NCBI GenBank assembly: GCA_052327205.1
Contig: CM126203.1
Coordinates: 231,446,001-231,510,000, forward strand
Reading direction: 5' to 3'
Source of the DNA: Somniosus microcephalus
Lineage: Eukaryota
Length of the DNA: 64,000 nt
Part shown: positions 16,899 through 56,399 of the stretch, one piece after another
Numbering within the stretch: position 1 is the first letter of the stretch
Layout of the letters: every line of letters starts with the position of its first letter
Program-made: the position numbers and the translations under genes
The notes under the pieces: model-generated
Told to the model about the DNA's origin: nothing
What the model saw: the letters and a program-made list of their open reading frames with translations, nothing else
The model's database searches: none

Positions 16899-18216
16899 CT
16901 ATTTATTGCCCATCTCTAGTTGCCCTGAGGGCATTAAGAGTCAACCATGTATTGTAGGACTGGTGTCACATGTAATCTCTCTCTTCTTAGGCAGTCCCTC
17001 GGAACCGAGGATGATTTGCTTCCACATTAAAAATGAGTTCCCAGGTGACTAATGAGTCCAATGCGGGACCTACAGTCTCTGTCACAGGTGAGGCAGACGG
17101 TGGTTGAAGGGGCGGGTGGGTGGGGTGCTTGGGTTGATGTGCACTCCTTGCGCTGCCTGCACTTGGCTTCCGCTTGCTCCCGGCAAAAACACTCGAGGTG
17201 TTCAGCGCCTTCTCAGATGCTTCTCCTCCACTTTGTGTGGTCTTGGGCCAGGGATTCCCAGGTGTCAGTGGGGATGTTGCACTTTTTCAAGGAGGCTTTG
17301 AGGGTGTCCTTGAAGCATTTCCTCTGCCCACCTGGGGCTCTCTTGCTGTGTCAGAGCTCCGAGTAGAGCGCTTGTTTTGGGAGTCTTGTATCGGGCATGC
17401 GGACGATGTGACCTATCCATCAGAGCTGATCGAGCGTGGTCAAAGCTTTGATGCTGGGGATGTTGGCCTGAGCGAGAACACTGACATTGGTGCGCCTATC
17501 TTGCCGATGGATTTGCAGGATCTTGCAGAGGCAGCATTGGTGGTACCTCTCCAGTGCATTGAGGTGCCTGCTGTACATGGTCCATGTCTCTGAGGCATAC
17601 AGCAGGACTGGTATCACTGCTGCTCTTTAGAACATGAGCTTAGTGCCAGGTTTGCGGTCCTGGTCTTCAAACACACTTCCTCAGGCGACCGAAGACTGCA
17701 CTGGCACATGAAAGCGGTGTTGAACTTCATCATCAACGTCTGTCCTTGTTGACAGTAGGCTCCCGAGGTATGGTTGTGGTCCACATTGTCCAAGGCCTTG
17801 TCGTGGATTTTGATAATCGGGGAGCAGTACTGTGTGGCGGGGGCAGCTTGGTAGAGGACCTTTGTCTGCCGGATGTTTAGTGTAATGCCCATGCTCTCGT
17901 ATGCTTCGGTGAAGGTGTTGACAATGGTTTTGAGATCGACCTCCAAGTGAGCGCAGACGCAAGCGTCGTCTGTGATATGCCATCAATGACTCAAAGACAA
18001 GGATTTAACTGAAGGCTTTTAATCACTAAGAACATAGCAGCATAGCAGGTCTTCCCACATCGGGTTCATCTGGTAGTGAGTGACTCATACAGCTCCTGAG
18101 ACCTTTATATGGCAAAAGACAGGGGCGTAGCCAATACACACAATAGGAACAAAAGGGTGCGGTTCACACAATACAAGCAGGTCTGGTGAAGGCATATTTC
18201 ATCACATTCACCTCTT

Positions 18217-19567
18217 CTACAGATTTAGTCTGTCCGGGGGTGTGATAGTCCTTCCTGAACGTCGCAACAGTACCTCGGGTTCCGACCGGGAGTCCGTGGT
18301 GCCCTCCTGGGCATACCCATGTGCCGGGGGTGTTGCAGGTACTTCTGGGGGTGGTGAGGATACCTCTGGGGATGGTGGAGGTTCTTCTGGGGGTGGTGGT
18401 GATGGGTCATCATCGTCGCTTCCTGCCGAGGCGAGGTCCTTTATGGACACGGTGTCTTCACGCCCGTCGGCGTGCTTGACATACGCGTACTGTGGGTTTG
18501 CGTGGAGTAGGTGTACTGCCTCCATGAGGGGATCCGTTTTGTGGCCCCTCACATGCTTCCGTAACAGGACTGTCCCTGGGGTGGAGAGCCACGAGGGTAG
18601 GGATACTCCTGAGGTTGATTTGCGGGGAAAAACAAACATCTTCTCGTGAGGAGTGGCGTTAGTAGCAGTACACAGTAGCGACCTTATCGAGTGGAGTACG
18701 TCTGGGAGGACCTCCTGCCAGCGGGAGGTGGGGAGGCCTTTAGACCTTAGTGCTAAGGTGACCGCCTTCCACGCTGTCGCGTTCTCCCTCTCCACTTGCC
18801 CATTACCCCGGGGGTTATAACTAGTGGTCCGACTCGTGGCTATCCCCTTCGACAGCGGGTATTGGCGCAATTCATCGCTCATGAACGACGCCCCCCCTGT
18901 CAGTGTGGATGTAGTTAGGCATGCCGAACGTGCAAAACAGGTTGCCGAGGCACTTGATGACCGTGGCACTGGTCATATCTGGGCAGGGGTAGGCGAATGG
19001 GAAGCGGGAGTACTCGTCCACAATGTTGAGAAAGTACACATTGCGGTCGGTGGAGGGGAGTGGTCCCTTGAAATCTAAGCTCAGGCGCTCGAATGGCCGT
19101 GTAGCTTTGATCAGGTGGGCTCGGTCGGGTCTGAAAAAACGGGGCTTGCGTTCCGCACAGGTGCGGCAGTCCCTGGTCATAGACCGGACCTCCTCGATGG
19201 AATAGGGCAGGTTATGGGATTTTATAAAATGGAATAGCCGGGTGACCCCCGGGTGGCAGAGGCCATTGTGGAGGCCCTGTAGCCTGTCCCCCTGGATGCT
19301 GGCACACATCCCTCGTGATAGGGCGTCGGGGGATTCGTTGAGGGCCCCCGGCCTATATACTATGTCGTACTCAAACGTGGAGAGTTCGATCCGCCACCTG
19401 AGAATTTTGTCGTTCTTGATCTTCCCCCTCTGTTTGTTGTTAAACATGAAGGCTACCGACCGCTGGTCGGTAAACAGGGTGAAGCGTTTGCCGGCTAGGT
19501 AGTGCCTCCAGTGCCGCACTGTCTCCACTATGGCCTGGGCCTCCTTCTCTACCGAGGAGTGCCTGAT
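18217..19567 (-). pseudogene. Element A pol 3' part (RNase H end plus integrase), frameshifted
   Basis: ORFs 18872-19528 and 18217-18969 join across a C-run near 18891; HHCC, SLDFKGP, HTDRG, GQVEREN. Confidence 0.88.
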
Positions 19568-22500
19568 TGATGTGCCTCAATAATCCCGAGACTCGATGTT
19601 AGCGGAACAAAACAAGGCTTTTATTAACTTAGAAGATAACACGCAGTGGAGAGAGGTATCTTCCATCTGGAGCTCTGCAGTACTGGATATGAGGCCAGAC
19701 TGAGCTGGCTTACATAGAGGCCAGGTATGGGCGGAGCCCTACACACAACACATTCCATACATTCCAATATACAATACAATGGTGAGGAGAAACCTGAAAC
19801 CAACCACAGTCACAGGCAATACAATGGTGAGGGGAAACCTGAAACCAACCACAGTCACAGGCAGTGATGAATGGAATATTTCATCACATTCACCCCTTCT
19901 ATAGATTTAGTCTGTTCGGGGGTTTGGTAGTCCTCTGCGACCGACGTGGCTGTTGTGGTGTCACGGGTGTCGGCTGGGTGTCCCCGGTGGCCTCCTGGGT
20001 CTCTGCCAGGGGTGCCGCCAGGGTTGATGAAGGGGTAGTTGGTGGGGGTGCCGTTGGTCGATGTTCTTCCGGGGGTGATGAAAGAGTAGTGGGTGGGTAA
20101 GAGTTGCTGTGGTCGTTGTTGCTGCTATTGCCGTGGCTGTTGTCGTTACCGGCTGGGGCGACGTCTTTTATTGACACGGTGTCCTCCCTTCCGTCGGCGT
20201 GCCGGACATACGCGTATTGGGGGTTGGCGTGGAGTAGGTGCACTGGCTCCACGAGAGGGTCCGTCTTATGGCCCCTCACATGCCTTCGCACGAATACCGG
20301 ACCTGGGGTGGAGAGCCATGACGGCATGGATACGCCTGAGGTGGATTTCCGGGGAAAGCTAAACATTCGTTCATGAGGCGTGGCATTAGTGGCAGTACAC
20401 AATAGCGACCGTATCGAATGGAGCACATCTGAGAGGACTTCCTGCCAGCGGGAGATAGGGAGGCCCTTGGTCCTTAGAGCTAGAGTGACTGCTTTCCATA
20501 CTGTCCCGTTCTCTCGCTCCACTTGACCATTACCCCGGGGGTTGTAGCTGGTGGTACGGCTCGTGGCGATACCCCTGGACAGCATGTACTGGCGTAGCTC
20601 TTCACTCATGAAGGATGCCCCCCTATCCGTGTGGATGTAGCTCGGCATACCGAACAGGCAGAACAGGCTGTTGAGACATTTAATGACCGTGGCGCTGGTC
20701 ATGTCTGGGCAGGGGAAGGCGAATGGGAACCGGGAGTATTCGTCCACAATGTTCAGGAAGTAAACATTGCGGTCGACGGACGGGAGGGGGCCCTTGAAAT
20801 CTAAGCTGAGCCGCTCAAAGGGCCGTGTAGCTTTGATTAAGTGGGCTCTATCAGGGTGGTAGAACCGAGGCTTGCACTCAGCGCAAGTGCGGCAGTTCCT
20901 GGTCAGAGGCCGAACTTCCTCAATCGAGTAGGGTAAGTTGCGGGACTTTATGAAGTGGAACAGCCGCGTGACCCCTGGGTGGCAGAGGTCGTTGTGGAGG
21001 GTCTGTAGCCGATCCCCGGTGGCGCTGGCACACATCCCTCGTGAGAGGGCATCTGGGGATTCGTTAAGGGCCCCTGGCCGGTAAATGATGTCATACTCGA
21101 AGGTGGAGAGCTCGATCCGCCACCTAAGAATCTTATCATTTTTGATCTTCCCCCTCTGTTTATTATGGAACATAAACGCTACCGACCGCTGGTCGGTAAG
21201 TAGGGTGAAGCGTTTGCCGGCTAGGTAGTGGCGCCAGTGGCGCACTGCCTCCACGATGGCTTGGGCCTCCTTTTCCACAGAGGAGTGTCTGATCTCGGGC
21301 CCTTGGAGGGTCCTCGAGAAGAAAGCTACGGGCCGCCCCGCCTGGTTGAGGGTGGCCGCCAAGGCAAAGTCAGACGCATCGCTTTCCACTTGAAATGGAG
21401 TGTTCTCGTCCACTGCCTGTAGCGTGGCCCGCTCAATATCCTGCTTAATGCTTTTGAAGGCGGCGTGGGCCTCAGCAGAGAGCGGAAAAGAGGATGCTTT
21501 CAAGAGGGGGTGGGCTTTGTCGGAGTAGTTGGGGACCCATTGGGAATAATAAGAAAATAAGCCCAGGCACCTTTTCAGGGCTTTGGGAGTGTTGGGCAGG
21601 GGCAGCTCCCGTAGGGGGCGCAATCGGTCGGGGTCTGGTCCGATTTCCCCATTCTCCACCACGCTGCCTAGTATGCAGAGGCGCGTGGTGTTGAAAACGC
21701 ACTTGTCCTCGTTGTAGGTGAGGTTGAGTTTTTGTGCGGTTTTCAGGAACCTCTCGAGGTTCGAGTCGTGATCCTGCTGGTTGTGACCGCAGATGGTGAC
21801 GTTGTCGAGGTAGGGGAAGGTTGCCTGCAAGTGGTGGTCATCGACCATGCGATCCATCTCCCTCTGGAAGACCGAGACCCCATTCGTCACCCCAAAGGGG
21901 ATTCTGAGGAATTGGTAGAGGCGTCCGTTCGCCTCGAAGGCGGTGTACGGGCGGTCCTCTGGTCTGATAGGGAGCTGGTGGTACGCTGACTTGAGGTCGA
22001 TGGTGGAGAACACCCGGTATTGGGCGATTTGGTTCACCATTTCTGATATGCGGGGTAGCGGGTAGGCGTCTAGTTGGGTGTACCTGTTGATCGTTTGGCT
22101 ATAGTCGATCACCATCCGTTTCTTCTCGCTACCCCTTACCACCACCACTTGGGCGCGCCACGGGCTATTGCTGCATTCAATAATGCGCTCTTTCAGGAGC
22201 CTGTCTACCTCGGTCGCGATAGACCGCCTGTCCTCCCAGCTGTACCTCCTGCTTTTGGTCGCTATTGGCCGGCAGTTAGGGGTAAGGTTCGCGAATAGCG
22301 AAGGCGGCTTTACCTTCAGGGTAGCCAGGCCGCACACTGTGAGGGGCGGCTGGGACCCACCGTACTTGAGCGTGATGCTTTGGTGGTTGCACTGGAAATC
22401 CAGGCCCAAGATCACGCTCGCGCATAGATTCTTCATGATTAATACTTTAAAATTATCGTATACAGTCCCGTTAACGGACAATTGTACCGTGCAGTAACCC

Positions 22501-24006
22501 AGAATGGTCGATGTCTGGGTTTTATCAGCCATAGAGATGGTACCCCGAGTAGGGACCACCTTTAGGGAGAGTTGTTGTGCCAGTTCAGGGTGGATAAAAC
22601 TCTCCGTGCTTCCGCTGTCAATTAAACATTTAACCCGGCACCCGTTTACCTCGATGTCCACCATTGATTTGGATAGCGGGTGGGGCCTGGTCTGGTCCAC
22701 TGTAACCGATGCCACTGTAGGGCCCTGATCGAGACAAGATGGCGTCCACGCTGTCTGCTCACAAGATGGCGGACCCCACGAGGTCGGGCAAGATGGCGTC
22801 CAAGATGGCCGCTCCCACGGCGCACACGCAGCGGTGGCGGGTTTTGGTTTTCCGGCGGGGTTCCCTCTGCACACCTTCCCGAAGTGCCCCTTCTTACCGC
22901 ACTTAAAGCAGGTGGTGCCTTTCGCCGGGCACAGGTTTCTGGTGTGCTTTGGCTGCCCGCAGAAGTAGTAGTTGGGTCCCCGACGCGTCGCGGCTGTCGT
23001 AGGGCTTCTGGGGGGAGAGCGGGGCCCCGACGGTGTCGGGCTGCCGGGCGGGGAAGATGCCTTCCAAGATGGCGGCGCCTTTGGTGCACACGTGGCGGCG
23101 TGGACGGCGCGGGCTGAAGAGTAGGCGTCCGAGTTTCTCTGGGCCACATCCAGGGATCGCGCGGTGTCCGCAGCCTGTTTCAGGTCCAATCCCGTTTTTT
23201 CCAGCAGTCTTTGCCGGATGTAAGTGGAGCTGAGACCTGTGATAAAGGCATCGCGAACAAGCTCGTCGGTGTACACTGCGGCTTTTACATCTCGGCACTT
23301 GCAGTCTTTGCCAAGCATTTTCAGGGTGCCTAGGAACTCCTCCACTGATTCCCCAGGTCGCTGTGCGCGAGTGGCGAGCAGATGCCTAGCATACACCTCA
23401 TTCGTAGGCTGCTGGTAATGCGCCTTTAAGATGTCGCAGGCGGCCAGGTACGTGTCGGCGTCTTGGATGAGGGGGTAAACCCGGTGGCTTACCCAATTCC
23501 GCAGAATTCCGAGTTTCATACTCGCAGCGTCCGTAGCGTCTTTGACGGCTGCGGAATTGTCCAGGAAGAATTCCATACACATAAACCAGTGTCCGAAGCG
23601 TGCTGATGTGTCCGGAGCATGCTGATCCAAATCCAAACGTTCGGGTTTCAGGAGTTGATCCATTGTGTTGAAAAATAAGTTAATAAAATTGATGTGCCTC
23701 AATAATCCCGAGACTCGATGTTAGCGGAACAAAACAAGGCTTTTATTAACTTAGAAGATAACACGCAGTGGAGAGAGGTATCTTCCATCTGGAGCTCTGC
23801 AGTACTGGATATGAGGCCAGACTGAGCTGGCTTACATAGAGGCCAGGTATGGGCGGAGCCCTACACACAACACATTCCATACATCCCAATATACAATACA
23901 ATGGTGAGGAGAAACCTGAAACCAACCACAGTCACAGGCAATACAATGGTGAGGGGAAACCTGAAACCAACCACAGTCACAGGCAGTGATGAATGGAATA
24001 TTTCAT
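19568..24006 (-). mobile_element. Gypsy LTR retrotransposon B nested in element A
   Basis: Near-identical LTRs 19568-19888 and 23690-~24006, PPT AGAAGGGGTGAA; the right junction lacks the last ~4 LTR bases and a clean TSD. Confidence 0.93.
19899..23663 (-). CDS. Element B uninterrupted gag-pol polyprotein (~1254 aa)
   Basis: Starts MDQLLKPERL; CCHC knuckle CFKCGKKGHFGKVC, protease LIDSGS, RT YLDN, RNase H ESDAS, integrase HHCC/DDE. First knuckle has a C>Y change relative to element A. Confidence 0.92.
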   Translation of the reverse strand: MDQLLKPERLDLDQHAPDTSARFGHWFMCMEFFLDNSAAVKDATDAASMKLGILRNWVSHRVYPLIQDADTYLAACDILKAHYQQPTNEVYARHLLATRAQRPGESVEEFLGTLKMLGKDCKCRDVKAAVYTDELVRDAFITGLSSTYIRQRLLEKTGLDLKQAADTARSLDVAQRNSDAYSSARAVHAATCAPKAPPSWKASSPPGSPTPSGPRSPPRSPTTAATRRGPNYYFCGQPKHTRNLCPAKGTTCFKCGKKGHFGKVCRGNPAGKPKPATAACAPWERPSWTPSCPTSWGPPSCEQTAWTPSCLDQGPTVASVTVDQTRPHPLSKSMVDIEVNGCRVKCLIDSGSTESFIHPELAQQLSLKVVPTRGTISMADKTQTSTILGYCTVQLSVNGTVYDNFKVLIMKNLCASVILGLDFQCNHQSITLKYGGSQPPLTVCGLATLKVKPPSLFANLTPNCRPIATKSRRYSWEDRRSIATEVDRLLKERIIECSNSPWRAQVVVVRGSEKKRMVIDYSQTINRYTQLDAYPLPRISEMVNQIAQYRVFSTIDLKSAYHQLPIRPEDRPYTAFEANGRLYQFLRIPFGVTNGVSVFQREMDRMVDDHHLQATFPYLDNVTICGHNQQDHDSNLERFLKTAQKLNLTYNEDKCVFNTTRLCILGSVVENGEIGPDPDRLRPLRELPLPNTPKALKRCLGLFSYYSQWVPNYSDKAHPLLKASSFPLSAEAHAAFKSIKQDIERATLQAVDENTPFQVESDASDFALAATLNQAGRPVAFFSRTLQGPEIRHSSVEKEAQAIVEAVRHWRHYLAGKRFTLLTDQRSVAFMFHNKQRGKIKNDKILRWRIELSTFEYDIIYRPGALNESPDALSRGMCASATGDRLQTLHNDLCHPGVTRLFHFIKSRNLPYSIEEVRPLTRNCRTCAECKPRFYHPDRAHLIKATRPFERLSLDFKGPLPSVDRNVYFLNIVDEYSRFPFAFPCPDMTSATVIKCLNSLFCLFGMPSYIHTDRGASFMSEELRQYMLSRGIATSRTTSYNPRGNGQVERENGTVWKAVTLALRTKGLPISRWQEVLSDVLHSIRSLLCTATNATPHERMFSFPRKSTSGVSMPSWLSTPGPVFVRRHVRGHKTDPLVEPVHLLHANPQYAYVRHADGREDTVSIKDVAPAGNDNSHGNSSNNDHSNSYPPTTLSSPPEEHRPTAPPPTTPSSTLAAPLAETQEATGDTQPTPVTPQQPRRSQRTTKPPNRLNL

Positions 24007-26371
24007 TGACGGGCCCTTGGAGGGTTCTTGAGAAAAAGGCTACGGGCCGCCCATCCTGGTTGAGGGTGGCTGCTAAAGCGAAGTCAGACGCATCGCTTTC
24101 GACCTGGAAAGGGATGTTTTCGTCCACTGCCCGCAGGGCGGCCTTCTCAATGTCGTGTTTAATGCTGTTGAAGGCGGCATGGGCCTCGGCTGTGAGCGGG
24201 AAGGACGTTGATTTCAGGAGGGGACGGGCCTTGTCGGAATAATTGGGGACCCATTGGGCGTAATAGGAGAAGAACCCCAGGAACCTTTTCAGGGCCTTGG
24301 GAGTGTTTGGTAGGGGTAGCTCCCGTAGGGGGCGCAATCGATCGGGGTCCGGACCGATTTCCCCATTTTCCACCACGCAGCCCAGGATACAGAGGCGCGT
24401 GGTGCTGAAGACACACTTATCCTCGTTGTAGGTGAGATTGAGTCTGAGGGCGGTTTTCAGAAATCTCGCGAGGTTCGAGTCGTGGTCTTGCTGGTCATGG
24501 CCGCAGATGGTGACGTTGTCTAGGTATGGGTAGGTGGCTGTTAACTGGTTCTCATCGACCATGCGGTCCATCTCCCGCTGGAAGACCGAGACCCCGTTCG
24601 TTACCCCAAAGGGGACTCTGAGGAAGTGGTAGAGACGTCCGTTCGCCTCGAAGGCGGTGTATGGACGGTCCTCCGGCCTAATGGGGAGCTGGTGGTATGC
24701 TGATTTTAGGTCGATGGTGGAAAACACCCGGTATTGCGCGATTTGGTTAACCATATCCGCTATGTGGGGCAGAGGGTAGGTGTCTAGCTGGGTGTATAGA
24801 TTAACCGTCTGGCTATAATCTATCACCATCCGCTTCTTTTCGCTACCCTTAACTACTACTACCTGGGCGTGCCACGGGCTGGTACTGCATTCGATGATAC
24901 CCTCCCGCTTGAGTCTTTCTACTTCCGACGCAATGAACCGTCTATCCTCCCAGCTGTACCGCCTACTCTTGGTCGCTATGGGTCGACAGTTGGGTGCGAG
25001 GTTGGCGAACAGAGAGGGCGGCTTGACCTTCAGGGTAGCCAGACCGCACACTGTGAGGGGCGGCTGGGACCCACCGTAGGTAAGTGTGATACTTTGGTGG
25101 TGGCACTGGAAGTCCAGACCCAAGATCACGCTCACACAGAGATCTGGCATTATCAATAGTTTAAAATCTCTGTAATCATTGCCTTTTACCGACAACATAA
25201 CCACGCAGAAACCTGTAATTTTTGAGGTATGAGTCTTATCGGCCATGGCGATTTTGCCCTGTGTGGGGACTATCGTTGGTGAAAGTCGTTTTACCAGGCT
25301 AGGATGAATAAAGCTTTCGGTGCTCCCACAGTCAATCAAGCATTTAACCTTGTTCCCGTTTACCTCTATGTCCATCATCGATTTAGACAACGGATGTGGC
25401 CTGGATTGATCCACTGTGATCGAGGCCACCAGTGGGTCCTGGAGGTCCGTGTAGTCGGGGCAAGATGGTGGACTCCATGAGGGTGGACAAGATGGCTTCC
25501 AAGATGGCCGCTCCCACGGCGCGCACGCGGCAGTGGTGGAGTTGGAGGCGGGGTTCCCTCTGCAGACTTTGCTGAAATGTCCTTTCTTCCCGCATTTAAA
25601 ACAGGTGGTGCCCTTCGCTGGGCACAGATGCCTGGAGTGTTTGTCCTGACCGCAGAAGTAGCATTTCAGGCCCCGATGCATCGCGGCAGTAGTGGGGCTC
25701 CTGGGTGGAGGCTGGGGCTCCGATGGTGCTGGGCTGGCCTGAGACCTGGGAGGTGAAGATGGCTTCCAAGATGGCGGCCCCCACGGCGCGCATGAGGCGG
25801 AGTGGGCCGCGTGGCCTGGGGAACAGGATTCAGAGTTCCTCTGGGCCATATCCAGCGATCGCGCTATATCTATAGCCTGTTTTAAGTCCAGTCCCTCCTT
25901 TTCAAACAGTTTCTGCCGAATATAATTTGAACTGAGGCCCGCAATAAGGGAGTCTCGAATCAGCTCCTCCGTGTACACGATGGCAGACACGGCCTTACAG
26001 TTACAGTCTCTGCCCAGTACTTTTAGGTTTAGTATAAAGTCCTCTAGTGACTCACCATGCCGCTGCGTGCGAGTAGTCAGAAGATGCCTGGCGTACACCA
26101 CGTTTATTGGCCGCGCGTAGTGGGCCTTCAGGATGGTGCAGGCCTCCTCATAGCTGGTGGCATCTTGGATGAGAGGGGAGACCCGATGGCTCACCCAGTT
26201 TCGCAGGATTCCCAGTTTCATGTCTCCGGTAGCGGTTTCGTCTGCGGCTATGGCAGTGGATGAGTTTGCAATGAAAAATTCAAAGCATTGGAACCAGTGT
26301 CCGAACTGTGTGGCTGCGTCTGAGGCATGGGGGTCCAGATCCAAGTGCTCTGGTTTCAGGAGTCGATCCAT
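24007..26371 (-). pseudogene. Element A gag-pro-RT-RNase H 5' part, truncated by element B
   Basis: MDRLLKPEHL start, two CCHC knuckles, LIDCGS, YLDN, ESDAS; reading frame runs into the B LTR after SRTLQGP. Confidence 0.9.
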
Positions 26372-28149
26372 CTTGGTGTTTTAGTGATTAAAATTGATGT
26401 GCCTTCAATAACTCAAAGACAAGGAATTTAAAGGATTCAACTAAGGCTTTTAATCACTAAGAACATAGCAGCATAGCAGGTCTTCCCACATCGGGTTCAT
26501 CTGGTAGTGAGTGACTCATACAGCTCCTGAGACCTTTATATGGCAAAAGACAGGGGCGTAGCCAATACACACAATAGGAACAAAAGGGTGTGGTTCACAC
26601 AATACAAGCAGGTAAAATACAAGCAGGTCTGATGAAGGCATATTTCATCACAGTCTGCATACTGTAATTCAACGACAGAGGATCGGAAGGCCTTGGATCT
26701 GGACTGGAGGTGACGGAGGTTGAACAGTTTCCCGATTGTTCTGTAAATTAGCTCCACTCCAACGGGGAGCTTACTGAGGGTGAGATGGAGCCTTGCAGCA
26801 AGGAAGATCGAGAAGAGCGTTGGTGCGATGACACAGCCTTGCTTGACCCCGGTCTGTACGTGAGTTGGGTCTGTGGTGGAACCATTGGTCAGGATCACGG
26901 CTTGCATGTCGTCGCAAAGCAAGCGGAGAATGGTGACAAACTTTTGAGGGCAGCTGAATTTAAGGAGGACACTCCAGAATCCCTCACGGTTGACAGTGTC
27001 GAAGGCATTTGTGAGATCAAAGAAGGCCATGTACAGTGGTTGGTGCTGTTCTCTGCATTTCTCTTGTAATTGACGTGCAGTGAAGATCATTTCCATTGTG
27101 CCCCTTAGTGGGCGGAATCCGCATTGCGACTCTGGGAGGAGCTCTTCGGCCACTGGGAGAAGCCGATTGAGGAGGATTCTTGCGATGACTTTCCCTGTGG
27201 CAGACAGCAGGGAAAGTCCTGTGTAATTACCGCAATCTTGTCACCTTTCTTGAAGATGGCCACAATTACGGCGTCTCTAAGATCCCCTGGCATGCTCTCC
27301 TTCTTCCAGATAAGAGAAATGAGTTTATGAATTCATGCCATGCTTTAGTGCCTCGGCAGGGGTTCCATCTGCTCCTGAGGCCTTGTTCTTCAGTTGTCGG
27401 ATGGCCTTTTCAACCTCATGCTGGCCTGGGGTTGTGCTGAGGTGGTGGTGGGGAGCATGCTGCGGGATGGAGTTGAGGACACTCTCATCGAAGACAGAGT
27501 CTTGGTTAAGGAGATCCTCGAAGTGCTCCTTCCAGCGGGCACTGACTGCCTCTCCGTTCTTGGCCCGCAGTGGGGTAAGACCTTGGGTGCTTGGGCCGTA
27601 GATGGTCTTGACTGCGCTAAAGAATCCACACACATCATGGTTGTCGGCTAGCTGCTGGATCTCCTCCACTTTCTCCACCCACCATCTGTTCTTTAGGTCG
27701 CGAGTTTTTTGTTGGACCTCGGCCTTCAGGCGTCTGTAGAGCTGCTTTCTTGGTCTCCAGTTCTGTTGCTGTTTCCAGATCAGGAATGCCTTGCGCTTGC
27801 GGCTTATTAGCTCCTGGATCTCCTGGTCGTTCTCGTCGAACCAGTCTTGGTGTTTCCTGGTCGAGTGACCGAGTGTCTCTTCACAGGTGCTGATTATGGA
27901 GGCTGTGGTGTATGTAACCTGTTCCACCTTAAGAGAACTACCTTAAGAGATGTACTACTTTCTCTTGGCTGCTGTATACTGTAATACTGTAATACCGGTG
28001 GTGACCACACCGGTATATAAGTGTCGTGTAGGGATTTGCTGGGCAGTTCAGCCCTGACCTTCGAATAGTAAAGACCTGTTAAAAGTTATTCTTGTTGTCT
28101 GTGTACAGTGATTGATCCTAAACATAACTGGGACACACAGACTCAACAG

Positions 28150-28159
28150 TGGCGACGAG
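28150..28159 (+). promoter_or_regulatory. Primer-binding site of element C (probably tRNA-Ser GCU)
   Basis: TGGCGACGAG one base after the LTR; complementary to the CUCGUCGCCA 3' end I recall for vertebrate tRNA-Ser(GCU). Confidence 0.75.
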
Positions 28160-28834
28160 TCCGATCTTACCCTGCGGCAGTTTTACATCCAAGGCAGCTT
28201 CGTCCTCAGAACGGGCGTCGAGAAGAGGCATCCGCCCTCATCATCCTGCTGAGCACCATCGCACGGGAGGCATCGAGAACCCGGGTTTAAAAAGAAAAAT
28301 TCTGACCACGAAGCCCTCCATCAGCGACAGGCAGTGATCATCCCTTCTACCACGGTGGTGGGTAAGCCGATCAGCGACACGAGCAGAAAGTCGGCCGCGT
28401 TGGCTGTGGAGTAGGGGAGGGAAAACGGAGGAATAAGGGCGGAGAACTCGACCACGGCCGGTAAAAAAGGGCCGCGCTGCAATCGAGGCCGAGAGGCGCA
28501 GCGACTGGGGCAGCTTAAGGCACGAGAGCCGCGGAGCAATTAAACGCAGCCGGTGTAAAGGACCGGGCTGCAAGCGGGGCTGCGAGGCAAAGCAGCGTCG
28601 GGGAATCGAGAACCACTGGGGAGGCGAGAACGGCAGCAGCACGGCAATTGCCATTGCAGCCAGCGGGGGAAGAAGGCAAACGCGGGAATCCACCATTGTA
28701 GTCGGCGGGGGAAGAAGACGAGCGCGGGAAAGACCGCCAAGCGCAGGAAGCCGCCATTTTAGTAGGCGGGGGAAGAAGACAAGCGCGGGAAGCCGCCATT
28801 TTGAAAAAAAAAAAAAAAATTTAAACTTGCAAGG

Positions 28835-29815
28835 ATGCCTAAACATGGGAGCATTAATACCTTTGATAGTGATATTGAAGATTGGACCACGTATGTAGAA
28901 CGCATGGAAGTTTATTGTAAAGCAAATAAGGTACCAGATGATGAGAAAGCACTAACCTTATTAAGCTCAATGGGTGCGAAGACATACAGGCTATTGAAGC
29001 ACCTTCTATCACCAAATAAACCGGCGGATCAGACTTTCGCGAATATTGTTACTGTCCTGAAAAATCATTTAAACCCCACGCCGCTGATGATAGCGGAACG
29101 ATTTAAATTTTACAGAAGAACGCAGCTGAAAGACGAAAGCAACGCTGAATTTTTAATTGAACTGCGTAAGCTATCGAAGTACTGTCAGTTTGGAGCAGGA
29201 CTAGCAGATGCGCTGAGAGATAAATTTGTGTGTGGATTGTTAAAAGAAGGAACACAAAAGCGACTGCTTGAGGAGAATGATCTTACGCTTGATAAAGCTG
29301 TCACTATTGCAGCATCGCAAGAAGCCGCAGCAAGAGGCACGGCGGAAATGCAGCTACGGTCACCGGAACTCAGCACCAATCAAATGGTCTTGGGTACAGT
29401 AAAATGTTATCGTTGTGGAAAGACAACGCACGATCAGAACCAGTGCTGGTTCAAAAATCAGGAATGCAGAAAATGTGGCAGGCTTGGTCACATAGCTAAA
29501 GTATGCCGGTCAGGAAAGAAGACCAGCAACAAAAAGTCACCGCAGGAAAAGTACAGAAAGGTACACAAGGTGACAGAGAACAGTTCGAACGAACAGAAGT
29601 CAGATTCAGACTCCAGCAGTAATGAACTGGGTAGTCTAAGAGTACACAATGTTGGTAAGGAAGCAGACCTCCAAACAATTTGGGTCACACTTCAGATAGC
29701 AGGAGCCCAAGTGAAGATGGAATTGGACACTGGATCGGCATTGACGGTCATAAATAAGCAAGATTACAAAAGATTATTCCCACATATTCCCCTACGGGAT
29801 ACGGAGATTTATTGA
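28835..29815 (+). CDS. Element C gag plus N-terminal protease
   Basis: Two zinc knuckles (CYRCGKTTHDQNQC, CRKCGRLGHIAKVC), protease LDTGSA. Confidence 0.9.
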   Translation: MPKHGSINTFDSDIEDWTTYVERMEVYCKANKVPDDEKALTLLSSMGAKTYRLLKHLLSPNKPADQTFANIVTVLKNHLNPTPLMIAERFKFYRRTQLKDESNAEFLIELRKLSKYCQFGAGLADALRDKFVCGLLKEGTQKRLLEENDLTLDKAVTIAASQEAAARGTAEMQLRSPELSTNQMVLGTVKCYRCGKTTHDQNQCWFKNQECRKCGRLGHIAKVCRSGKKTSNKKSPQEKYRKVHKVTENSSNEQKSDSDSSSNELGSLRVHNVGKEADLQTIWVTLQIAGAQVKMELDTGSALTVINKQDYKRLFPHIPLRDTEIY

Positions 29816-32787
29816 AAACATACACGGGGCAAAGAGTATACCCCATCGGGAAGATAGAGGTAAAGGTGGTCCACAGGGGCAAAGAAAGCCGAGGAATGGA
29901 CTTATATGTGCTACCTGAGGGAGGTCCACCACTACTGGGACGGGAGTGGATTAGGAAAATAAATATGGACTGGCATTCCTTAAAAGCACTAACGGTAGAT
30001 TCCGGTAAAAATGATGTCAAACCTAAACGATTGTCCAGAATATTGGACGATGCTAAAGAGATGTTTCAACAGGGACTGGGAACACTGAGAGGAATTACGG
30101 CAAACATCAAGGTTGAAGAACATGCAAACCCGAAATTTTTCAAAGCCAGACCGGTACCTTATGCGATACGACCTGCTGTGGAAGCTGAGCTGGAAGGGCT
30201 AGAACGTTCGGGAGTACTGTCTAAGGTAGACTGGAGTGAGTGGGCCACGCCCATTGTTCCCGTCATGAAGCGTTCATCGAGCAACAAGCCGGGGGAACCG
30301 GGGAAGGTTCGCATCTGTGGAGATTTCAAGATCACTGTTAATCCGGTGCTTCACACGGTGCAGTATCCGCTTCCGCGGATTGAGGATATCTTCGCTTCGT
30401 TGTCTGGCGGGAAACACTTCACCAAGATAGACCTGGCGCAGGCGTACTTACAGATGGAAGTTGAGGAAGAGTCACGCCAGTATCTCACGATCAACACGCA
30501 TAGAGGCTTGTACCGGTATAATAGACTGGTTTTTGGAGTGGCATCGGCTCCAGCAATTTGGCAGAGGGCCATGGAGCAGGTATTACAGGGAATTCCAGGC
30601 ACACAATGTTACCTGGACGATATTCTGATTACAGGAGATGATGACGAGGAACACCTTGCAAATTTGGAACTGGTGCTCACCAGATTGAAAGAATATGGAC
30701 TTCGAGTTAATCGGCAGAAATGTGAGTTCTTTCAGAAGAGGATCTCGTACTGTGGTCATGTCATTGACCAGGAGGGGCTTCATAAGTCTCCTGACAAGAT
30801 CGAAGCTGTTGTGAAGGCTCCCGCTCCGGATAATGTATCCCAGTTGAGGTCGTTCCTAGGGTTGATTAACTATTACCATAAGTTTCTGCCAAATTTATCC
30901 ACGGTGCTGCACCCGCTGAACGCTCTTTTGCAGAAGGGAGTACCATGGAAGTGGAGCGAGGACTGTAAGAGGGCCTTTCGCAAAAGCAAGGCATTGATCA
31001 CCTCAGAGGAAGTGTTGGCTCACTTCAACCCAACGCTGCCTATTCGTTTGGCTTGTGATGCTTCTCCATATGGTATTGGGGCAGTACTCTCACACAAGTT
31101 GCCAAATGGCCAGGAGAGGCCAGTTGCGTTCGCATCCAGATCATTGACCTCCGCTGAGCGAAACTATGCTCAGATAGATAGGGAGGCTCTCAGCCTTGTG
31201 TGGGGAGTAAAGAAGTTTAATCATTACCTGCAGGGCCAAAAGTTCACGCTTCTGACAGACCACCAGCCGTTGGTATCCATTTTTAACCCTAAGAAGGGTG
31301 TTTCGGTGATGACAGCACAGAGACTCCAGAGATGGTCCCTTTTCCTAGGGGCACATCAATATCAGATTGAATTCAAAGGTACAAAGCAGCATGGTAATGC
31401 TGATGGGCTGTCGCGCCTGCCACTACCTACAGAGGAGGAGGCACCGACGGTTGACCCTGTTGAGTTATTTCACTCGACCATCATCGAGTGTTTACCAGTC
31501 ACCAATGCAAGTATTGAAAGAGAAACCAGGAACGACCCGACACTGTCCCGGGTCTGCGAAGTGACAGTGAAGGGATGGCCAGCACATGGTGATCCACTGT
31601 TACCGGCATTCTCAGCAAGACGAGAACAGCTGTCCGTCTGTCAAGGAACATTGATGTATGGAACAAGGGTGATTATTCCTCCTAAGTTAAGAGAGAGAGT
31701 TCTAAAGGAACTGCATGAAGGTCATCTGGGGGTAGTCAAGATGAAAAGCCTTGCTAGGGCTTATGTGTGGTGGCCGGGTATCGACCAACAGATAGAGGAT
31801 CTGACGAAAAGCTGCTCAGGGTGCCAAAAAGTGCAAAATGCACCTCCGATTGCACCGCTGCATCCATGGGAATGGCCTTCAACCCCATGGCAACGTGTAC
31901 ATATTGACTTTGCTGGTCCATTCATGGACTCCATGTTTTTAATTGCGGTGGACGCACATTCTAAATGGCCAGAAGTGATTAAGATGACTACCACTACCTC
32001 GGAAAAGACGATCGCGGTGCTAAGAACGATATTTGCAAGAAATGGATTGCCAGAACAAATATGTTCAGACAACGGACCGCAGTTCGTGTCAGAAGAATTC
32101 CAGAAATTCATGAAGAAGAATGGGGTGAAACATTATACCTCTGCCCCATATCATCCGGCTACAAACGGGTTGGCCGAGAGATTTGTACAAACGTTTAAAA
32201 AAGCAATAAAGGCCATGAGCGAAGATCAGATTCCACTACAACACAAGGTGGACAAATTCCTACTGGCATATCGAAACGCCACTCATGCAGTGACAAACCA
32301 AAGTCCTGCCATGATGTTCTATAACAGGAGGTTGCGGTCCAGGTTGGACTTGTTAAAACCAAATGTGCGGAGGGAAGTTGAAAACAAACAGTTCCAGCAT
32401 ATAAATAACAAGACCACTCGGAGCTTCGAAATAGGACAACCAGTGTTAGCCCGGGACTATAAAAACGAGAAATGGCAATCTGGAACAATTCGGGCAATAC
32501 AAGGACCCCTGATGTACACGGTAGATATTGGTGAAAATGTAATACGGCGTCATGCTGACCAACTGGTAGAATCGAGAGCAAGGGTCGAACCCATGGTTAC
32601 GGCAGAGACAACCGCGAAAGAAGTTAGTGAACCTGAAGCATCTACCTCAGAAGTGAATGTACCTGATGATGATGTCCAATCCATAAGAGACCAACTAGAT
32701 GAGTCACCCCAGCAACGAGAATCAGAGACCCCTGAAAGGCGTTATCCAACTCGAATCAGGAGGCCTCCTCAGAGACTGAATCTTTGA
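29812..32787 (+). CDS. Element C pol (protease end, RT, RNase H, integrase)
   Basis: RICGDFK, YLDD, ACDAS, HHCC, HIDFAGP/DNGPQF/LAERFV; out of frame with gag inside the protease. Confidence 0.92.
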   Translation: MKTYTGQRVYPIGKIEVKVVHRGKESRGMDLYVLPEGGPPLLGREWIRKINMDWHSLKALTVDSGKNDVKPKRLSRILDDAKEMFQQGLGTLRGITANIKVEEHANPKFFKARPVPYAIRPAVEAELEGLERSGVLSKVDWSEWATPIVPVMKRSSSNKPGEPGKVRICGDFKITVNPVLHTVQYPLPRIEDIFASLSGGKHFTKIDLAQAYLQMEVEEESRQYLTINTHRGLYRYNRLVFGVASAPAIWQRAMEQVLQGIPGTQCYLDDILITGDDDEEHLANLELVLTRLKEYGLRVNRQKCEFFQKRISYCGHVIDQEGLHKSPDKIEAVVKAPAPDNVSQLRSFLGLINYYHKFLPNLSTVLHPLNALLQKGVPWKWSEDCKRAFRKSKALITSEEVLAHFNPTLPIRLACDASPYGIGAVLSHKLPNGQERPVAFASRSLTSAERNYAQIDREALSLVWGVKKFNHYLQGQKFTLLTDHQPLVSIFNPKKGVSVMTAQRLQRWSLFLGAHQYQIEFKGTKQHGNADGLSRLPLPTEEEAPTVDPVELFHSTIIECLPVTNASIERETRNDPTLSRVCEVTVKGWPAHGDPLLPAFSARREQLSVCQGTLMYGTRVIIPPKLRERVLKELHEGHLGVVKMKSLARAYVWWPGIDQQIEDLTKSCSGCQKVQNAPPIAPLHPWEWPSTPWQRVHIDFAGPFMDSMFLIAVDAHSKWPEVIKMTTTTSEKTIAVLRTIFARNGLPEQICSDNGPQFVSEEFQKFMKKNGVKHYTSAPYHPATNGLAERFVQTFKKAIKAMSEDQIPLQHKVDKFLLAYRNATHAVTNQSPAMMFYNRRLRSRLDLLKPNVRREVENKQFQHINNKTTRSFEIGQPVLARDYKNEKWQSGTIRAIQGPLMYTVDIGENVIRRHADQLVESRARVEPMVTAETTAKEVSEPEASTSEVNVPDDDVQSIRDQLDESPQQRESETPERRYPTRIRRPPQRLNL

Positions 32788-35599
32788 ACTGTTTGGCATG
32801 AAGTTGTATATATATATATATGTTATTATGCTATGTTAAATGGGGATATAACTGTTAAGCTAAAAAGGGAGGATTGTGGTGTATGTAACCTGTTCCACCT
32901 TAAGAGAACTACCTTAAGAGATGTACTACTTTCTCTTGGCTGCTGTATACTGTAATACTGTAATACCGGTGGTGACCACACCGGTATATAAGTGTCGTGT
33001 AGGGATTTGCTGGGCAGTTCAGCCCTGACCTTCGAATAGTAAAGACCTGTTAAAAGTTATTCTTGTTGTCTGTGTACAGTGATTGATCCTAAACATAACT
33101 GGGACACACAGACTCAACAGAGGCTTTGAGTGCAGACCAGGCGCTGTGGACGCTCTGCGCCTCTGAATCACTGGGAGTCGTCAGGTTGGCTGTGAGGCAC
33201 AGGCGGAATAGGGCTTTCTTAGCGGGGTCTTTGAGTGCTCCAGCGTTGATTTTCCTGTGGCATTGTTTCTGTTGCCGCCGCTGTTTTGTGGCTACATTGA
33301 TGGCGATGACAGAGCGGATTAGGCGGTGGTCTGTCCAGTAGTCATCAGCTCCTGTCATGGCGCGGGTGATGCAGACATCCTTGCGGTCCCTCGCTTGGAC
33401 GATGACGTAGTCTAGCAGATGCCAGTGCTTGGAGTGAGGGTGCTGCCATGAAGCCTTGTGCTTGTCTCTCTGACGGAACAAGGTGTTGGTTATGACAAGG
33501 CCATGTTCTAAGCATTTCAACAGGAGGAGGGTACCATTGGAGTTGGCTTTCCCTACCCCCTCTCTGTCGATCACACCTCCGCAGAGGTCTGTCTCCTTTC
33601 CAACTCTGACGTTAAAGTCGCCAAGGAGAATCAGCTTGTCACCTGTTGGGACTCGGGACAGGGATTGTTCGAGGCTGGAGTAGAATTCCTCTTTGGTCTC
33701 GTCTGTGGCTTCCAGTGTTGGGGCGTACGCACTGATGACCGTAACGCACTGGTTCTGGGCTAGGGTGAGCCGAAGAGTCATGAGGCGCTCGTTTATACCA
33801 CTAGGAGAGACTCTGAGACGCCCAACCAGTTCATTTTTTATGGCGACGCCTACCCCATGGAGGCGGCGTTCTTCAGGTTTGCCTTTCCAGAAGAAGGTGT
33901 AGCCACCGCTTTGCTCCTTGAGCTAGCCTTTCCCTGCCCGCCGGGTCTCACATAGGGCGGCGATGTCAATGTCGAAACGTCTGAGTTCCCGGGCAACGCT
34001 AGCAATACAGCGTTCCGGTCTGTCACTGTTGAGGTTGCTCATGAGGGTCCTGACATTCCAAGTCCCGAACTTCATTTTAAAGGGTGGAAGATGCCTGTGC
34101 GTGAATTCTTTTAACGTGGGGTGGCCGTTGCACACCAGCTACCACATGGGCTTGACAGAGCAAGGTCTTGGTCCAATGGCAAGGGGATCCAAGATGACTG
34201 GAGACCAGGCTCTGCTACAACGGCCTAGAGCACACACACAAACATACTGCTACTGTCCTCCTCCTTCCTTCCCGCAGGTCCTCTCTGCCTGGGTTTCGTA
34301 GGATGCATTGTGGTCCTTTCGACCTCACTGTTGGCCCGTGCCACACCTTCCCTGGGCCCCGACCCCGCTGCTGGACTCGTCCTCGCTCCTGGGTCCCGGC
34401 CTCGGACATGAATGATGTTGTCTCTCACAGGATCAAACTAGCACTGATATTCTTGCGATCCCTGGCCCCGAGCTCCACTCGTGATCCACTAGTCACTAGA
34501 TCAATAGTCCAGTGGAGGAGCATAGTCTTGACGACAGAGAGGTCTGGGAATTTGGGAGCTAAGTTTAAGTGAAGATCCAGTGCTCACTGATGAGAACAAA
34601 TAGGCCAGACCTGAAGGACATTCACGAACCAGTTGGGTTTTTATGACAATCCAGCAGCTTTCATGGTTATTTTCTTGGTGCCAACCCACAAGTTATCATC
34701 TGCAGCGCACTACTTGTTACAATCCCCAATGGCTGCACCAATGCACAATGCTAAGAAAACATCATTCTTTTGAAAGCATGTTCCGTGAGATCCCCTGACT
34801 CATCAGCTGAAGAGTGACGTGAGCTAACCTTCTGAACAGCATGTTCCTTTTTCTTTTCTATCATTACCAGCTGCTCCTGTTCACTTGTGGGATCAGTGTA
34901 CTATAGGTTGACTAAGTGCTCTTTACACCCACCCACCCCCCACTTCCAGTTGCGCTAACATCCAATAGGAATATCTAGACTAGAGACTCTTCCACTATGA
35001 TGGAAAGTAACACTCTTCCGTACTTTCCACAGGGTGTCGTAGGCATTCCGAGGTTCACATTCCTGAACAAGCAAGGCGTAATAATGCCAGCTTTTCTCCC
35101 CTGCCCTCCTTTAGGTCCGCCTATGACACTATGCCTCAGCGGTGAAGGTAGTGTATCACCTGTCTGCTAAAGCTGCTACTACGAAGTGTGTAAGAGTGGC
35201 CCAGGGTGACTCATAGAAACATAGAAACACAGAAGATAGGAGCAGGAGTAGGCCATTCGGCCCCTCGAGCCTGCTCCGCCATTGAATGAGATCATGGCTG
35301 ATCATCCAAATTCAGTACCCTGTCCCTGCTTTCTCCCCATATCCCTTGATGCCTTTAGCCTTAAGAAATATATCCAACTCCTTCTTGAATATATTTAATG
35401 AATTGGCCTCTACTGCCTTCTGTGGTAGAGAATTCCACAGGTTCACCACTCTGGGTGAAGAAATTCCTCTTCATCTCTGTCCTAAATGGCTTACCCCTTA
35501 TCCTTAGACTGTGACCCCTGGTTCTGGACTCCCCCGCCATCGGGAACATCCTTCCTGCATCTAGTCTGTCTAGTCCTGTCAGAATTTTATAAGTTTCAA

Positions 35600-43292: not shown

Positions 43293-44268
43293 ATTTTTTT
43301 TTTTTTAATTTGCCAAGACCAGCTCTCTCCACTGCATGCATGGGTTCACAGACCAGCACATCCCTGATTTTGCCAGCCTTTCAAAATTGAGAATATATTG
43401 AAAGTCATTCATATGGCAATGCTTTAGCCATACAGACAGGCAGGAATGTGTTACAAGGTAGCAGTACAGAGAGGAATTGTGATAACATCATAGATTGAAG
43501 CTCAGGTGATATGGTAGCTTCATCTCATAGAATCATAGGCCTAGAAATTGGGTATAGCCCCGCTTGGGGCGTTAGACTTGGCAGAGCGCAAATTTTATAG
43601 CCAGACGCAACTTATCAACACCTCGTGCGATATTGGGTTGCAGCGCCCCAAAGGTGATTGAGGCACGAGTTCAGGCGTTACACGGGGCACCTAAGGCGCT
43701 AACATGCCAGCGCAACCCAATATCGGGGCGTCCAGCCGCAGCGCAGGTGCTCTCAATTACCCATGACCACGAGACTTCCAGGCGCCGGCCAGCTCTTAAA
43801 GGGGTGGGTCAGGCAGCTCCAGCATCCACAGTCTGCGCCTTGTAGGCCTGCAAATCGGCGCAGGCCCTTCTCTGGCGCAAAAAACTTGGATCATATGGAG
43901 AGGGTGAGGCAGAGAGCAGAGCGCTTCACGAATGAGTCTCTGGAGGAATTGGTGGCCGCAGTGGAGCACCGGCGAGATGTCCTCTACCCCGACAATGGCA
44001 GGAGGCCTAATCATAAGGACTACCGATGAGCTTGGAGGGATGTTTCTCAGAGGGTCAACTCCAGCAGTATGGCGACCAGGAGCCCTGTGCAGTGCAGGAA
44101 GAAATTCAACAACCTCACTCGGGTCGTGAGGGTGAGTGGAGTTAATGTAAATTTATGCATCCCTCCATTAGCACCTGACTTTATGGCTACAGGGTGCGCT
44201 ATCCCCCTCTGGCCATCTGTCAGCAAGCACCCATGGCCCTTTCTGGTCACACACATGCACATTTGACT

Positions 44269-44533
44269 CAGGGCATCATGTAAGGGCTGGTCCACCATGG
44301 GGGGCATGAGATGATAATCCAGGGCATCATGTAAGGGCTGGTCCACCATGGGGGGCATGAGATGATAATCCAGGGCATCATGTAAGGGCTGGTCCACCAT
44401 GGGGGGCATGAGATGATAATCCAGGGCATCATGTAAGGGCTGTTCCACCATGGGGGGCATGAGATGATAATTCAGGGCATCATGTAAGGGCTGTTCCACC
44501 ATGGGGGGCATGAGGTCATAACTCAGGGCATCA
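44269..44533. repeat. 51-bp minisatellite (~5 copies) in Myb-gene intron 1
   Basis: Unit CAGGGCATCATGTAAGGGCTGGTCCACCATGGGGGGCATGAGATGATAATC. Confidence 0.92.
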
Positions 44534-45282
44534 TTTAACATCACTTCCCGTCCTTTCCCCTGCAGGCCAAGCTGGCGAGAAACTGCAAGGAGCAGCTTCG
44601 CACCGGAGGAGGCCGTCCTCAACTGGAGCCTCTGATGGATCTCGAGGAGAGAGTCCACCAGATTGTGGGAGGATGCCTGAGTGGTTCTGTCACCACTGCA
44701 GCTGCCGACCCCATTATCCACAGCGATGGTAAGGTTCTCTACTATTACAGCTGTCACCTTCCAGTTGTTTCCCCCGCCAGCATACTTTCTCAATGTGGAG
44801 CCATGTCATAGCATTGCCGCACTGTTGCATCCCTTGCTGCCAAACTGTCCTTTTGCTAAAGCCACTCTTCAACCTCCCTGCTTTCAGATGCTGCATCACC
44901 AGCTCGGGAGCCGGCCCCTCAAGTTGCCAGTGCCAGTGCCTCCGGAGGCGACGACCAGGAGGAAGCCGGACCATCCGTGCCAGCCTCAGGGGAGCCACCG
45001 CATCTGGAGACTGGGGATAGTAGTTCCCTTGAGGGGAGGGGGGGCGCTCTGATGAGGAACCAGCGGCCTGCAGCAACGCGCGGGGGGTAGGGACGCTCGG
45101 GGGCCGTTTCCCCGGAGGGCGAGGCAGGCCACCATGACTGCTGCACAGAGTGCAGAGGAGGTGCGTAGCCTTGCCGAGATGAGCGCCCAGGCCCGGCTCA
45201 GGCACACTGAGCTGATGGCTGCAGTGGGGAGGATGCCTGAGTCGATCGACGCACTGGCAAAGAGTGTGCTGGACTTTGGGGC

Positions 45283-45505
45283 AGCAATGGAAAGGACAGT
45301 CCAGGGCTTCGGCCCAGCAATGGAAAGGTCTGTCCAGGGCTTCGGCCCAGCAATGGAAAGGTCTGTCCAGGGCTTGTCCGAGGCAGTGGAAAGGTCTGTC
45401 CAGGGCTTGTCCGAGGCAGTGGAAAGGTCTGTCCAGGCCTTGTCCGAGGCAGTGGAAAGGACTGTCCAGGGCTTGTCCGAGGCAGTGGAAAGGACTGTCC
45501 ATGGC
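45283..45505 (+). repeat. 33-bp coding tandem repeat (~6.5 copies)
   Basis: Encodes A(M/V)ER(S/T)VQG(FGP/LSE) 11-aa repeats. Confidence 0.9.
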
Positions 45506-46346
45506 TTTTCCCAAGCACTGGCACCTGCCACGCAGGTCCTCACTGCTGCCACGCAGTCACTTGCTGGCCTCGTCCACACGCAAATTGAGGCCACACGAAC
45601 ACTCTCTGCTGCCACCCTAGCTGCATCAAGCAGGATCACCCCAGGCCCTTGCAGCACCACAGCAGGCCATGAATCTGTGGAGCAGTCGATTGTGGCGTAT
45701 GATCCTGTGCGGCCCCATCAGAGTGCTAGTGTTTCGGCCGACCACAGTGCAGGTGTCCTCTCTCTGCATGTGAGCAGTCCTGATGCCACCGCTGGCATGT
45801 CAGCAAAGCAGCTGCCACCACCTGCGCGGCAGACTGCTAGCAGACATGCCCAGTTGGAGCAGCCTGCTTGCGGGACCTCCAAGCCCAGAGGTCATCCAGG
45901 CCGTCCCTCAGGGGCTTCAGCGCTTCCAGACACTCAGCAGGTGTCCCCAGCCTTGACGCAGCCACTGGGGTCCAATTACAGAGGAGCTGCAGGGAGGGAA
46001 GGGGCCGACCTCGTAAGAGAAGTCGGTCTCCATCAAGGGGTCACCAGTAGAGGGAGGTGCTACGACGTCTCTTTTTCCGGATTTAAGGCCGTCCACACCT
46101 GCTGTGTTTGTTTGTTATGGTTTGGTTCATTTCGCCGGGTTGCCAGACAGTTATCTGTTAGTTTGTTAGTTATGATTTCTGTTACCATTACGCTGTCATG
46201 CTGGAAGGAAGCACTTGTTTGAAAATAAAGAAAACTTTTTATTTACAATCGAGCTGTACACTATTTACAATCATCGAGGCCTTCATAGGCTTACAGCGAA
46301 CCGGAGGGCGCTGTTTGAATCACAGCCACCATTCCGTCCGAGGGGC

Positions 46347-56390: not shown

Positions 56391-56399
56391 AGCAGCCTG

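Follow-up and report, generated by a model that had tools for sequence, protein, structure and literature searches.

Element A, a Ty3/Gypsy retrotransposon on the minus strand (26652-17973) of the window, by which we mean the whole 64,000-nt stretch of Somniosus microcephalus DNA analysed, carries in its LTR a 13-mer whose exact complement lies just past the 5' LTR. By analogy with Tf1, we consider it probable that this pair is a self-primer and its binding site for reverse transcription, replacing the host tRNA. The position of the two arms, their complementarity, their covariation and the absence of TGG speak for this reading, which would entail folding, cleavage, priming and re-copying of the primer site.

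Elements A, B and C

Element A displays the Ty3/Gypsy domain order between direct LTRs, a polypurine tract and a target duplication, and element B is nested in its RNase H region. Each encodes one gag-protease-RT-RNase H-integrase frame, and the closest solved structure to the A/B protein is the Ty3 RT (E 3e-52). None of 37 aligned homologue proteins revealed a chromodomain at E 0.01, and no env match was found in the 37 either. The nearest named homologues come from rays and catsharks (78-80% identity) and from an anemone, a nematode, a damselfly and an ascidian (60-66%). At the RT active site, 94 of 122 proteins have the motif YxDN and 27 have YxDD (not found in 1), and the family was recently amplified. 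The features of the three elements are as follows.

26395..26652, minus strand: element A 5' LTR, 258 nt, TG...CA, with the CA end at 26396-26395
26535..26559, minus strand: predicted promoter by motif match, GC-box-like ACGCCC and TATAAA, 99 nt and 80 nt upstream of the 13-mer
26448..26460, minus strand: predicted self-primer, 13 nt, containing ATTAAA (26454-26449), a likely poly(A) signal
26443..26447, minus strand: GCCTT, 5' arm of a predicted second helix, which begins directly behind the primer; the cut is predicted at 26448/26447
26401..26405, minus strand: AAGGC, 3' arm of the predicted second helix, within U5
26381..26393, minus strand: element A primer-binding position, exact 13-mer complement, 1 nt past the LTR, no TGG
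24010..26371, minus strand: element A gag-protease-RT-RNase H, ATG 10 nt past the primer site; B interrupts the frame
18217..19567, minus strand: remaining RNase H and integrase of element A, two frames, broken
18211..18218, minus strand: element A polypurine tract, with TGAA and then the 3' LTR after it
17973..18206, minus strand: element A 3' LTR, 234 nt, with the same 13-mer as the 5' LTR
17968-17972 and 26653-26657: 5-bp target duplication CAGAC of element A
23690..24006, minus strand: element B 5' LTR with damaged left end; its 13-mer, at 23753-23741, contains AATAAA
23676..23688, minus strand: element B primer-binding position, exact complement of B's own 13-mer
19899..23663, minus strand: element B gag-pol in a single frame, with two CCHC knuckles, protease, RT (YLDN), RNase H and integrase; no chromodomain, no env
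19568..19888, minus strand: element B 3' LTR
27904-33124: element C, a separate young Gypsy with LTRs 99.6% identical, a TGG-type site and YLDD, which served as control

The internal regions of A and B are about 77-82% identical. By this measure the two are sister families, so that a single comparison between them is not independent evidence.

The 13-nt pairing in elements A and B

On the minus strand, positions 26393-26381 of element A read TTTTAATCACTAA, and the exact complement TTAGTGATTAAAA stands at 26460-26448; a single A (26394) separates the 5' LTR end from the downstream arm. The layout of element B is the same, with TTTTATTAACTTA (23688-23676) pairing with TAAGTTAATAAAA (23753-23741). 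An earlier reading made from the sequence only had described the 13-nt complement in A's own LTR, containing ATTAAA, and had found A and B to differ at three of 13 positions, all three mirrored on the partner arm; re-reading the sequence agrees with the former and confirms the latter. Its further statement, that the two LTRs are largely dissimilar outside the 13-mer, holds upstream, with 140 of 272 columns compared to a mean of 45% and a maximum of 48% in shuffles, but not downstream, where 36 of 53 columns are shared.

Given the LTR composition, 8e-6 perfect complements are expected by chance, and none of 20,000 shuffles yielded 12 or 13 bp. Control element C, with the TGG-type site TGGCGACGAG, displays LTR complementarity of at most 4 bp. 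A chance origin of A's pairing is excluded. The 95-nt leader was predicted to fold with the stem (z = -3.26), and a 176-nt stretch retains the stem at an overall stability that is not unusual (z = -0.12).

Copies within the genome

The same 13-mer pair is present in each of the 30 closest copies of A. A junction pattern anchored outside the stem gave 12,968 matches in the genome, some of them double-counted. A perfect 13-bp run was present in 78 of 89 distinct parsed junctions; 20 of the stretches fetched for this set had been chosen in part because their primer sites were unusual, and among the 11 imperfect members are one parsing error and one copy without an LTR of its own. The 14th position is unpaired in all 89.

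At pair 4 of the B type, the LTR arm differs in 52 copies, 19 of them compensated and 33 uncompensated. Eighteen of the 19 compensated copies represent one amplified subfamily. Seventeen of the 33 uncompensated copies were fetched, and in all 10 of those with a visible 3' LTR this LTR is unchanged, which places the changes after insertion. The sequence-only reading had named uncompensated mismatches on a par with compensated ones in further family members as speaking against it, and it withstands this check: the uncompensated changes are scattered and, where checked, confined to the 5' LTR.

Pair 2, at which A-U and G-C subfamilies are both abundant, is discordant in only 14 of 6081 copies: eight with a change in the 5' LTR only, two without a 3' LTR in view, three with primer-site changes and one with both LTRs changed and the primer site unchanged. 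No recombinants between subfamilies, which would have proved templating, were found among these discordant copies. Three of the discordant copies, together with one copy from the pair-4 set, belong to a sub-subfamily, being four insertions (L320, L321, L326, L329) sharing an uncorrected G-U pair in the stem, which indicates that correction between the arms is not absolute. Mismatches can pass through a cycle but rarely amplify. Locus L287 (567-4730) is one insertion flanked by an intact 5-bp target duplication; its primer site and the 13-mer of its 5' LTR bear a matched change that the 3' LTR lacks. An 18-copy subfamily acquired this change independently.

At pair 7 of the B type, the primer-site arm is changed in 37 copies and the LTR arm in 13, with T>G commonest on both. 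We had considered a primer-site-specific RT error or RNA modification as the source of the many T>G at this position and rejected it, as the LTR arm is dominated by the same change (9 of 13); a hotspot of DNA context accounts for the change, though not for the asymmetry of 37 against 13. A search of this genome for families with a different gag start gave seven matches, all with leaders already seen. Head-to-tail copies also occur: in L061 a primer site directly follows a 3' LTR, and L176-L178 (G000:C2:27200201-27208449) stand 4099 bp apart, resembling the single-LTR tandems reported for Tf1/Tf2.

Distant relatives and covariation

Scans of metagenomes and MAGs gave 93 loci, of which 31 were examined at the 5' end. 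Thirteen were aligned, three were siblings with perfect pairing, two were siblings with one mismatch and six had no junction. L089 is paired at 14 of 14 positions, L092 displays 12 visible pairs, and L118 and L119, read by eye, have about 10 Watson-Crick pairs and one G-U each. L136 and L137 match only via the 3' LTR (11/13 and 12/13), and no pairing partner was found at the examined 5' end of L151. In the recurring layout, a segment of 12-17 nt with AAA at its end is followed by RCC; U5 takes up the next 24-66 nt, and CA, a single A and the complement come last. Loci L161-L168 are animal-type retrotransposons of this kind in bacterial MAGs and probably represent host contamination. Viral contigs revealed no relative of these elements.

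The covariation alignment comprised 24 distinct variants, 11 from this genome and 13 from distant metagenome elements. In these rows, which were selected for having the pairing and are related to one another, so that the counts are not probabilities, 310 of 312 cells are paired, 68 cells spread over 10 of the 13 pairs carry a double change, none a one-sided change, and G-U is found in 0 of 312. None of 500 shuffles reached the observed level of covariation; control pairings slid along the alignment were 24-52% paired, and the next three pairs outward 45.8%. The last three A-U pairs of the stem are invariant in the 24 variants. The pairing extends far beyond A and B.

The junction is CA, A, TTT in 24 of 24 aligned variants. 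Where a tRNA site would start with TGG, all 24 have TTT, and the sequence tracks the LTR. Self-priming is recognised by complementarity of at least 10 bp between the primer position and the 5' LTR; A and B have 13 bp and their relatives 12-17 bp. In an RT-RNase H tree, which carries a long-branch warning and holds no named references, the 35 rows of the lineage group on a single branch (100/100), separate from element C and three further Gypsy rows.

Predicted promoter, poly(A) signal and second helix

Among 13 folded copies from this genome, a GC-box-like motif lies 70-123 nt upstream of the 13-mer in 10 and a TATA-like motif 70-85 nt upstream in eight; among the distant elements, a TATA-like motif is found in 3/12 and a GC box in 0/12. 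The two motifs predict a start upstream of the 13-mer. Transcription may thus begin about 40-55 nt upstream, and the primer would then be internal, unlike that of Tf1. The primer may be such an internal piece, may form the start of an alternative transcript, or may come from the 3' copy; Tf2 is described as using alternative transcription starts (PMC5341516, in excerpt). Two raw RNA runs with the same species label cover both strands, with no start, end or pile-up at the 13-mer among the rows listed.

AATAAA or ATTAAA lies inside the 13-mer in 11 of 11 variants from this genome, while several distant members without a canonical hexamer (GTTAAA, TTTAAA, GGTAAA) have nevertheless kept the stem. 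Folded as predicted, the RNA would hide the poly(A) hexamer in the duplex of the 5' LTR and leave it free in the 3' LTR. Rfam gave no match to a hammerhead or another known RNA family at E 1. Two further candidates were dropped: a conserved hairpin just upstream of the primer was not supported by the folded copies, and no conserved AG marks a splice acceptor at the primer start.

In 17 of 24 variants, compared to 7.4 expected, the predicted cut site marks the start of a helix of at least 4 bp, whose partner position varies. This second helix contains 20 G-U among 86 pairs, though the scoring admitted G-U and is thereby biased towards it. The GCCTT arm is absent from the minimum-energy fold of A itself. 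Lin and Levin 1998 reportedly found that Tf1, too, requires a U5 stem adjacent to the cut site.

Proposed self-priming and its alternatives

Minus-strand priming must begin within a few bases of the LTR end, where a tRNA site shows TGG (PMC5006619, in excerpt). The downstream arm lies exactly where the minus-strand primer must bind, which argues for a pair of primer and primer site. In analogy with Tf1, the LTR 13-mer of the RNA would pair with the site after the LTR, and a cut after ...UAAA(A) at the foot of the second helix, probably by the element's own RNase H, would free a 3'-OH. RT would then extend over about 52 nt of U5/R, jump via a short repeat bounded by the poly(A) hexamer and the poly(A) site, and continue. 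Plus-strand synthesis would copy the primer, and the primer site would be rewritten from the LTR in each cycle; one mutation and one tolerated cycle would suffice for an apparent compensatory pair. A side benefit would be that the duplex conceals the 5' poly(A) hexamer. Excerpts of the literature on the Tf elements describe comparable steps: in Tf2, the primer site anneals to a self-primer located in R, which RT cuts before copying U5 and R and making its jump (PMC5341516), and the 3' end of Tf1 cDNA bears the primer site in DNA form (PMC11042837).

Rewriting of the primer site in each cycle would produce strict Watson-Crick mirroring, and the three mirrored changes between A and B need not have been selected one by one. 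Templated copying of one arm fits the contrast in G-U between the primer helix (0/312) and the adjacent helix (20/86) better than ordinary compensation does. It is therefore likely that selection keeps the duplex and copying supplies the mirrored changes, although L287, in which the 3' LTR did not change, needs a second event under a simple re-copying model. The sequence-only reading had concluded that base pairing rather than primary sequence is under selection, giving a functional RNA structure. Its core stands, since the duplex is kept and the pairing is lineage-wide, but it was incomplete, as the downstream arm occupies the primer-binding spot and the lack of G-U agrees better with copying; templating weakens the inference from the three mirrored changes and leaves the conclusion of a functional duplex in place.

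Self-priming could also proceed from the other end of the RNA, which would circularise so that the primer site is bound by the 13-mer of the 3' LTR, which is then cut or trimmed after AAA, the upstream 40-55 nt serving as strand-transfer repeat. The promoter-like motifs, with their predicted start upstream of the 13-mer, and the three A-U pairs that never vary in the 24 variants agree with this, and the 13-mers of the two LTRs are the same and indistinguishable by sequence alone. Polyadenylation is expected 10-30 nt downstream of a hexamer, which in all 11 local variants lies within the 13-mer, so that extra 3' trimming would be required; moreover, the local 5' fold is short-range and stable (z = -3.26). 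We know of no precedent for priming by the 3' copy of an LTR segment and regard this route as unlikely. In HIV-1 a hairpin hides the 5' poly(A) signal, and the stem might be a selected hairpin of that type, with another RNA as primer and mirrored changes due to ordinary compensatory selection. An upstream start would make 5' suppression useful, and the hexamer is inside the stem in every variant from this genome (11/11); but the members with GTTAAA, TTTAAA or GGTAAA keep the stem as well, selected RNA helices normally accept the G-U pairs missing from all 312 cells, and there is no alternative primer site, since the stem arm occupies the spot and the ATG follows 10 nt on. All in all, such a hairpin without a priming role seems quite improbable.

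Correction of an inverted repeat at the DNA level, by template switching or gene conversion, would match the arms without any part in priming. It could account for L287, where the matched change is confined to the 5' LTR and primer site beside an intact 5-bp target duplication, and the different subtypes of element A's two LTRs point in the same direction. Post-insertion mutations of one arm, however, mostly stay (33 of 52 at one pair; 10 of 10 checked were 5'-only), and both the fixed position and the missing tRNA site would be left unexplained, making it a very improbable account of the pairing.

Within the preferred reading of the pair as self-primer and primer site, a more specific scheme can be offered tentatively, and we doubt it more than we trust it: an animal-wide, non-chromodomain Gypsy lineage would be primed by an internal 13-nt RNA with its own poly(A) signal. 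Transcription would start 40-55 nt upstream and the primer ends would be set by processing (or the primer would come from the 3' repeat), a route distinct from that of Tf1, and one duplex would couple priming with suppression of premature polyadenylation.

Comparison with known systems

Self-priming has been demonstrated for Tf1; for Tj1, sushi-type chromoviruses, Tcn1 and the copia lineage TAR it has been proposed (PMC6317226, PMC4600332, both in excerpt). Tf1/Tf2 of Schizosaccharomyces pombe, Tj1 of S. japonicus and the Tf1/sushi chromoviruses resemble the present elements in having a primer site just past the 5' LTR that is complementary to their own LTR, and their self-primer is cleaved by RT (parts of PMC5341516 and PMC4600332). 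Compared to Tf1/sushi, membership of which requires a chromodomain, none was found here in 37 proteins, the RT motif is YxDN in 94 of 122 proteins, and the hosts of the named homologues are rays, catsharks, a sea anemone, nematodes, a damselfly and an ascidian. The Tf1 primer is 11 nt long and consists of the first bases of the RNA, while here the primer is 12-17 nt, overlaps the poly(A) hexamer and may be internal. The lineage-wide feature thus appears to work like Tf1 self-priming yet would lie outside Tf1/sushi by the lack of a chromodomain.

For the plant lineages Tcn1 (Gypsy) and TAR (Copia), the excerpted text of PMC6317226 applies the same measure, LTR complementarity of at least 10 bp at 0-5 bp past the LTR, compared to 13 bp at 1 bp here; lineages and hosts differ, and self-priming is a prediction there too. 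Skipper of Dictyostelium is likewise a Gypsy element without TGG and has a pyrimidine-rich stretch after the LTR, but it carries a chromodomain and, in the part of PMC5006619 consulted, no complementary LTR region, whereas here the complement is exact. Saci2/lennie of flatworms share the single gag-pol frame and short LTRs, but are described in excerpts of PMC12471100 with a tRNA primer site and 4-bp target duplications, while A has the 5-bp CAGAC and no TGG and does not group with them on this basis.

Literature searches for Smaug, Skipper/Troyka, YLDN and Cigr-1 did not identify the clade, and YLDN and YVDN had no match among the listed text of the supplements of PMC6238403 (Cigr-1 and MolGy clades). 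We found no account of the pairing in this clade among the open-access papers searched; it may already be noted in Repbase reports or in papers behind subscription, which lay beyond the search. The genome-wide evidence from copies, the G-U contrast pointing to templated copying and a promoter geometry possibly distinct from Tf1 may be new here.

Gypsy self-priming has been placed in the Tf1/sushi chromoviruses and the related Tcn1 (excerpts of PMC6317226 and PMC4600332). Self-priming in an abundant, chromodomain-less animal lineage would, if true, mean a further origin or a retained ancient state, and would bear on the question, raised in the part of PMC3601003 consulted, whether hairpin priming preceded tRNA priming. 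Such elements would also escape silencing by tRNA fragments and be missed by annotation tools that seek a tRNA site. For covariation screens, the case is a caution that perfect compensation without G-U can stem from templated copying.

Further observations in the window

The two LTRs of A (26395-26652 and 17973-18206) are distinguished by a 15-nt duplication upstream and, past the 13-mer, by several changes that resemble the family's two common subtypes; gene conversion or strand transfer between two RNAs would explain this mismatch despite the intact target duplication. A is inserted at the YADD codons of a LINE-like reverse transcriptase gene (26653-26665, 17960-17972). No target duplication flanks element B within A; the left end of B is damaged and about two target bases are missing (24006-24012, 19560-19568), and its insertion was possibly integrase-independent. 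The window also contains minisatellite arrays at 55269-56431 (34 bp), 45214-45543 (33 bp) and 44218-44589 (51 bp).
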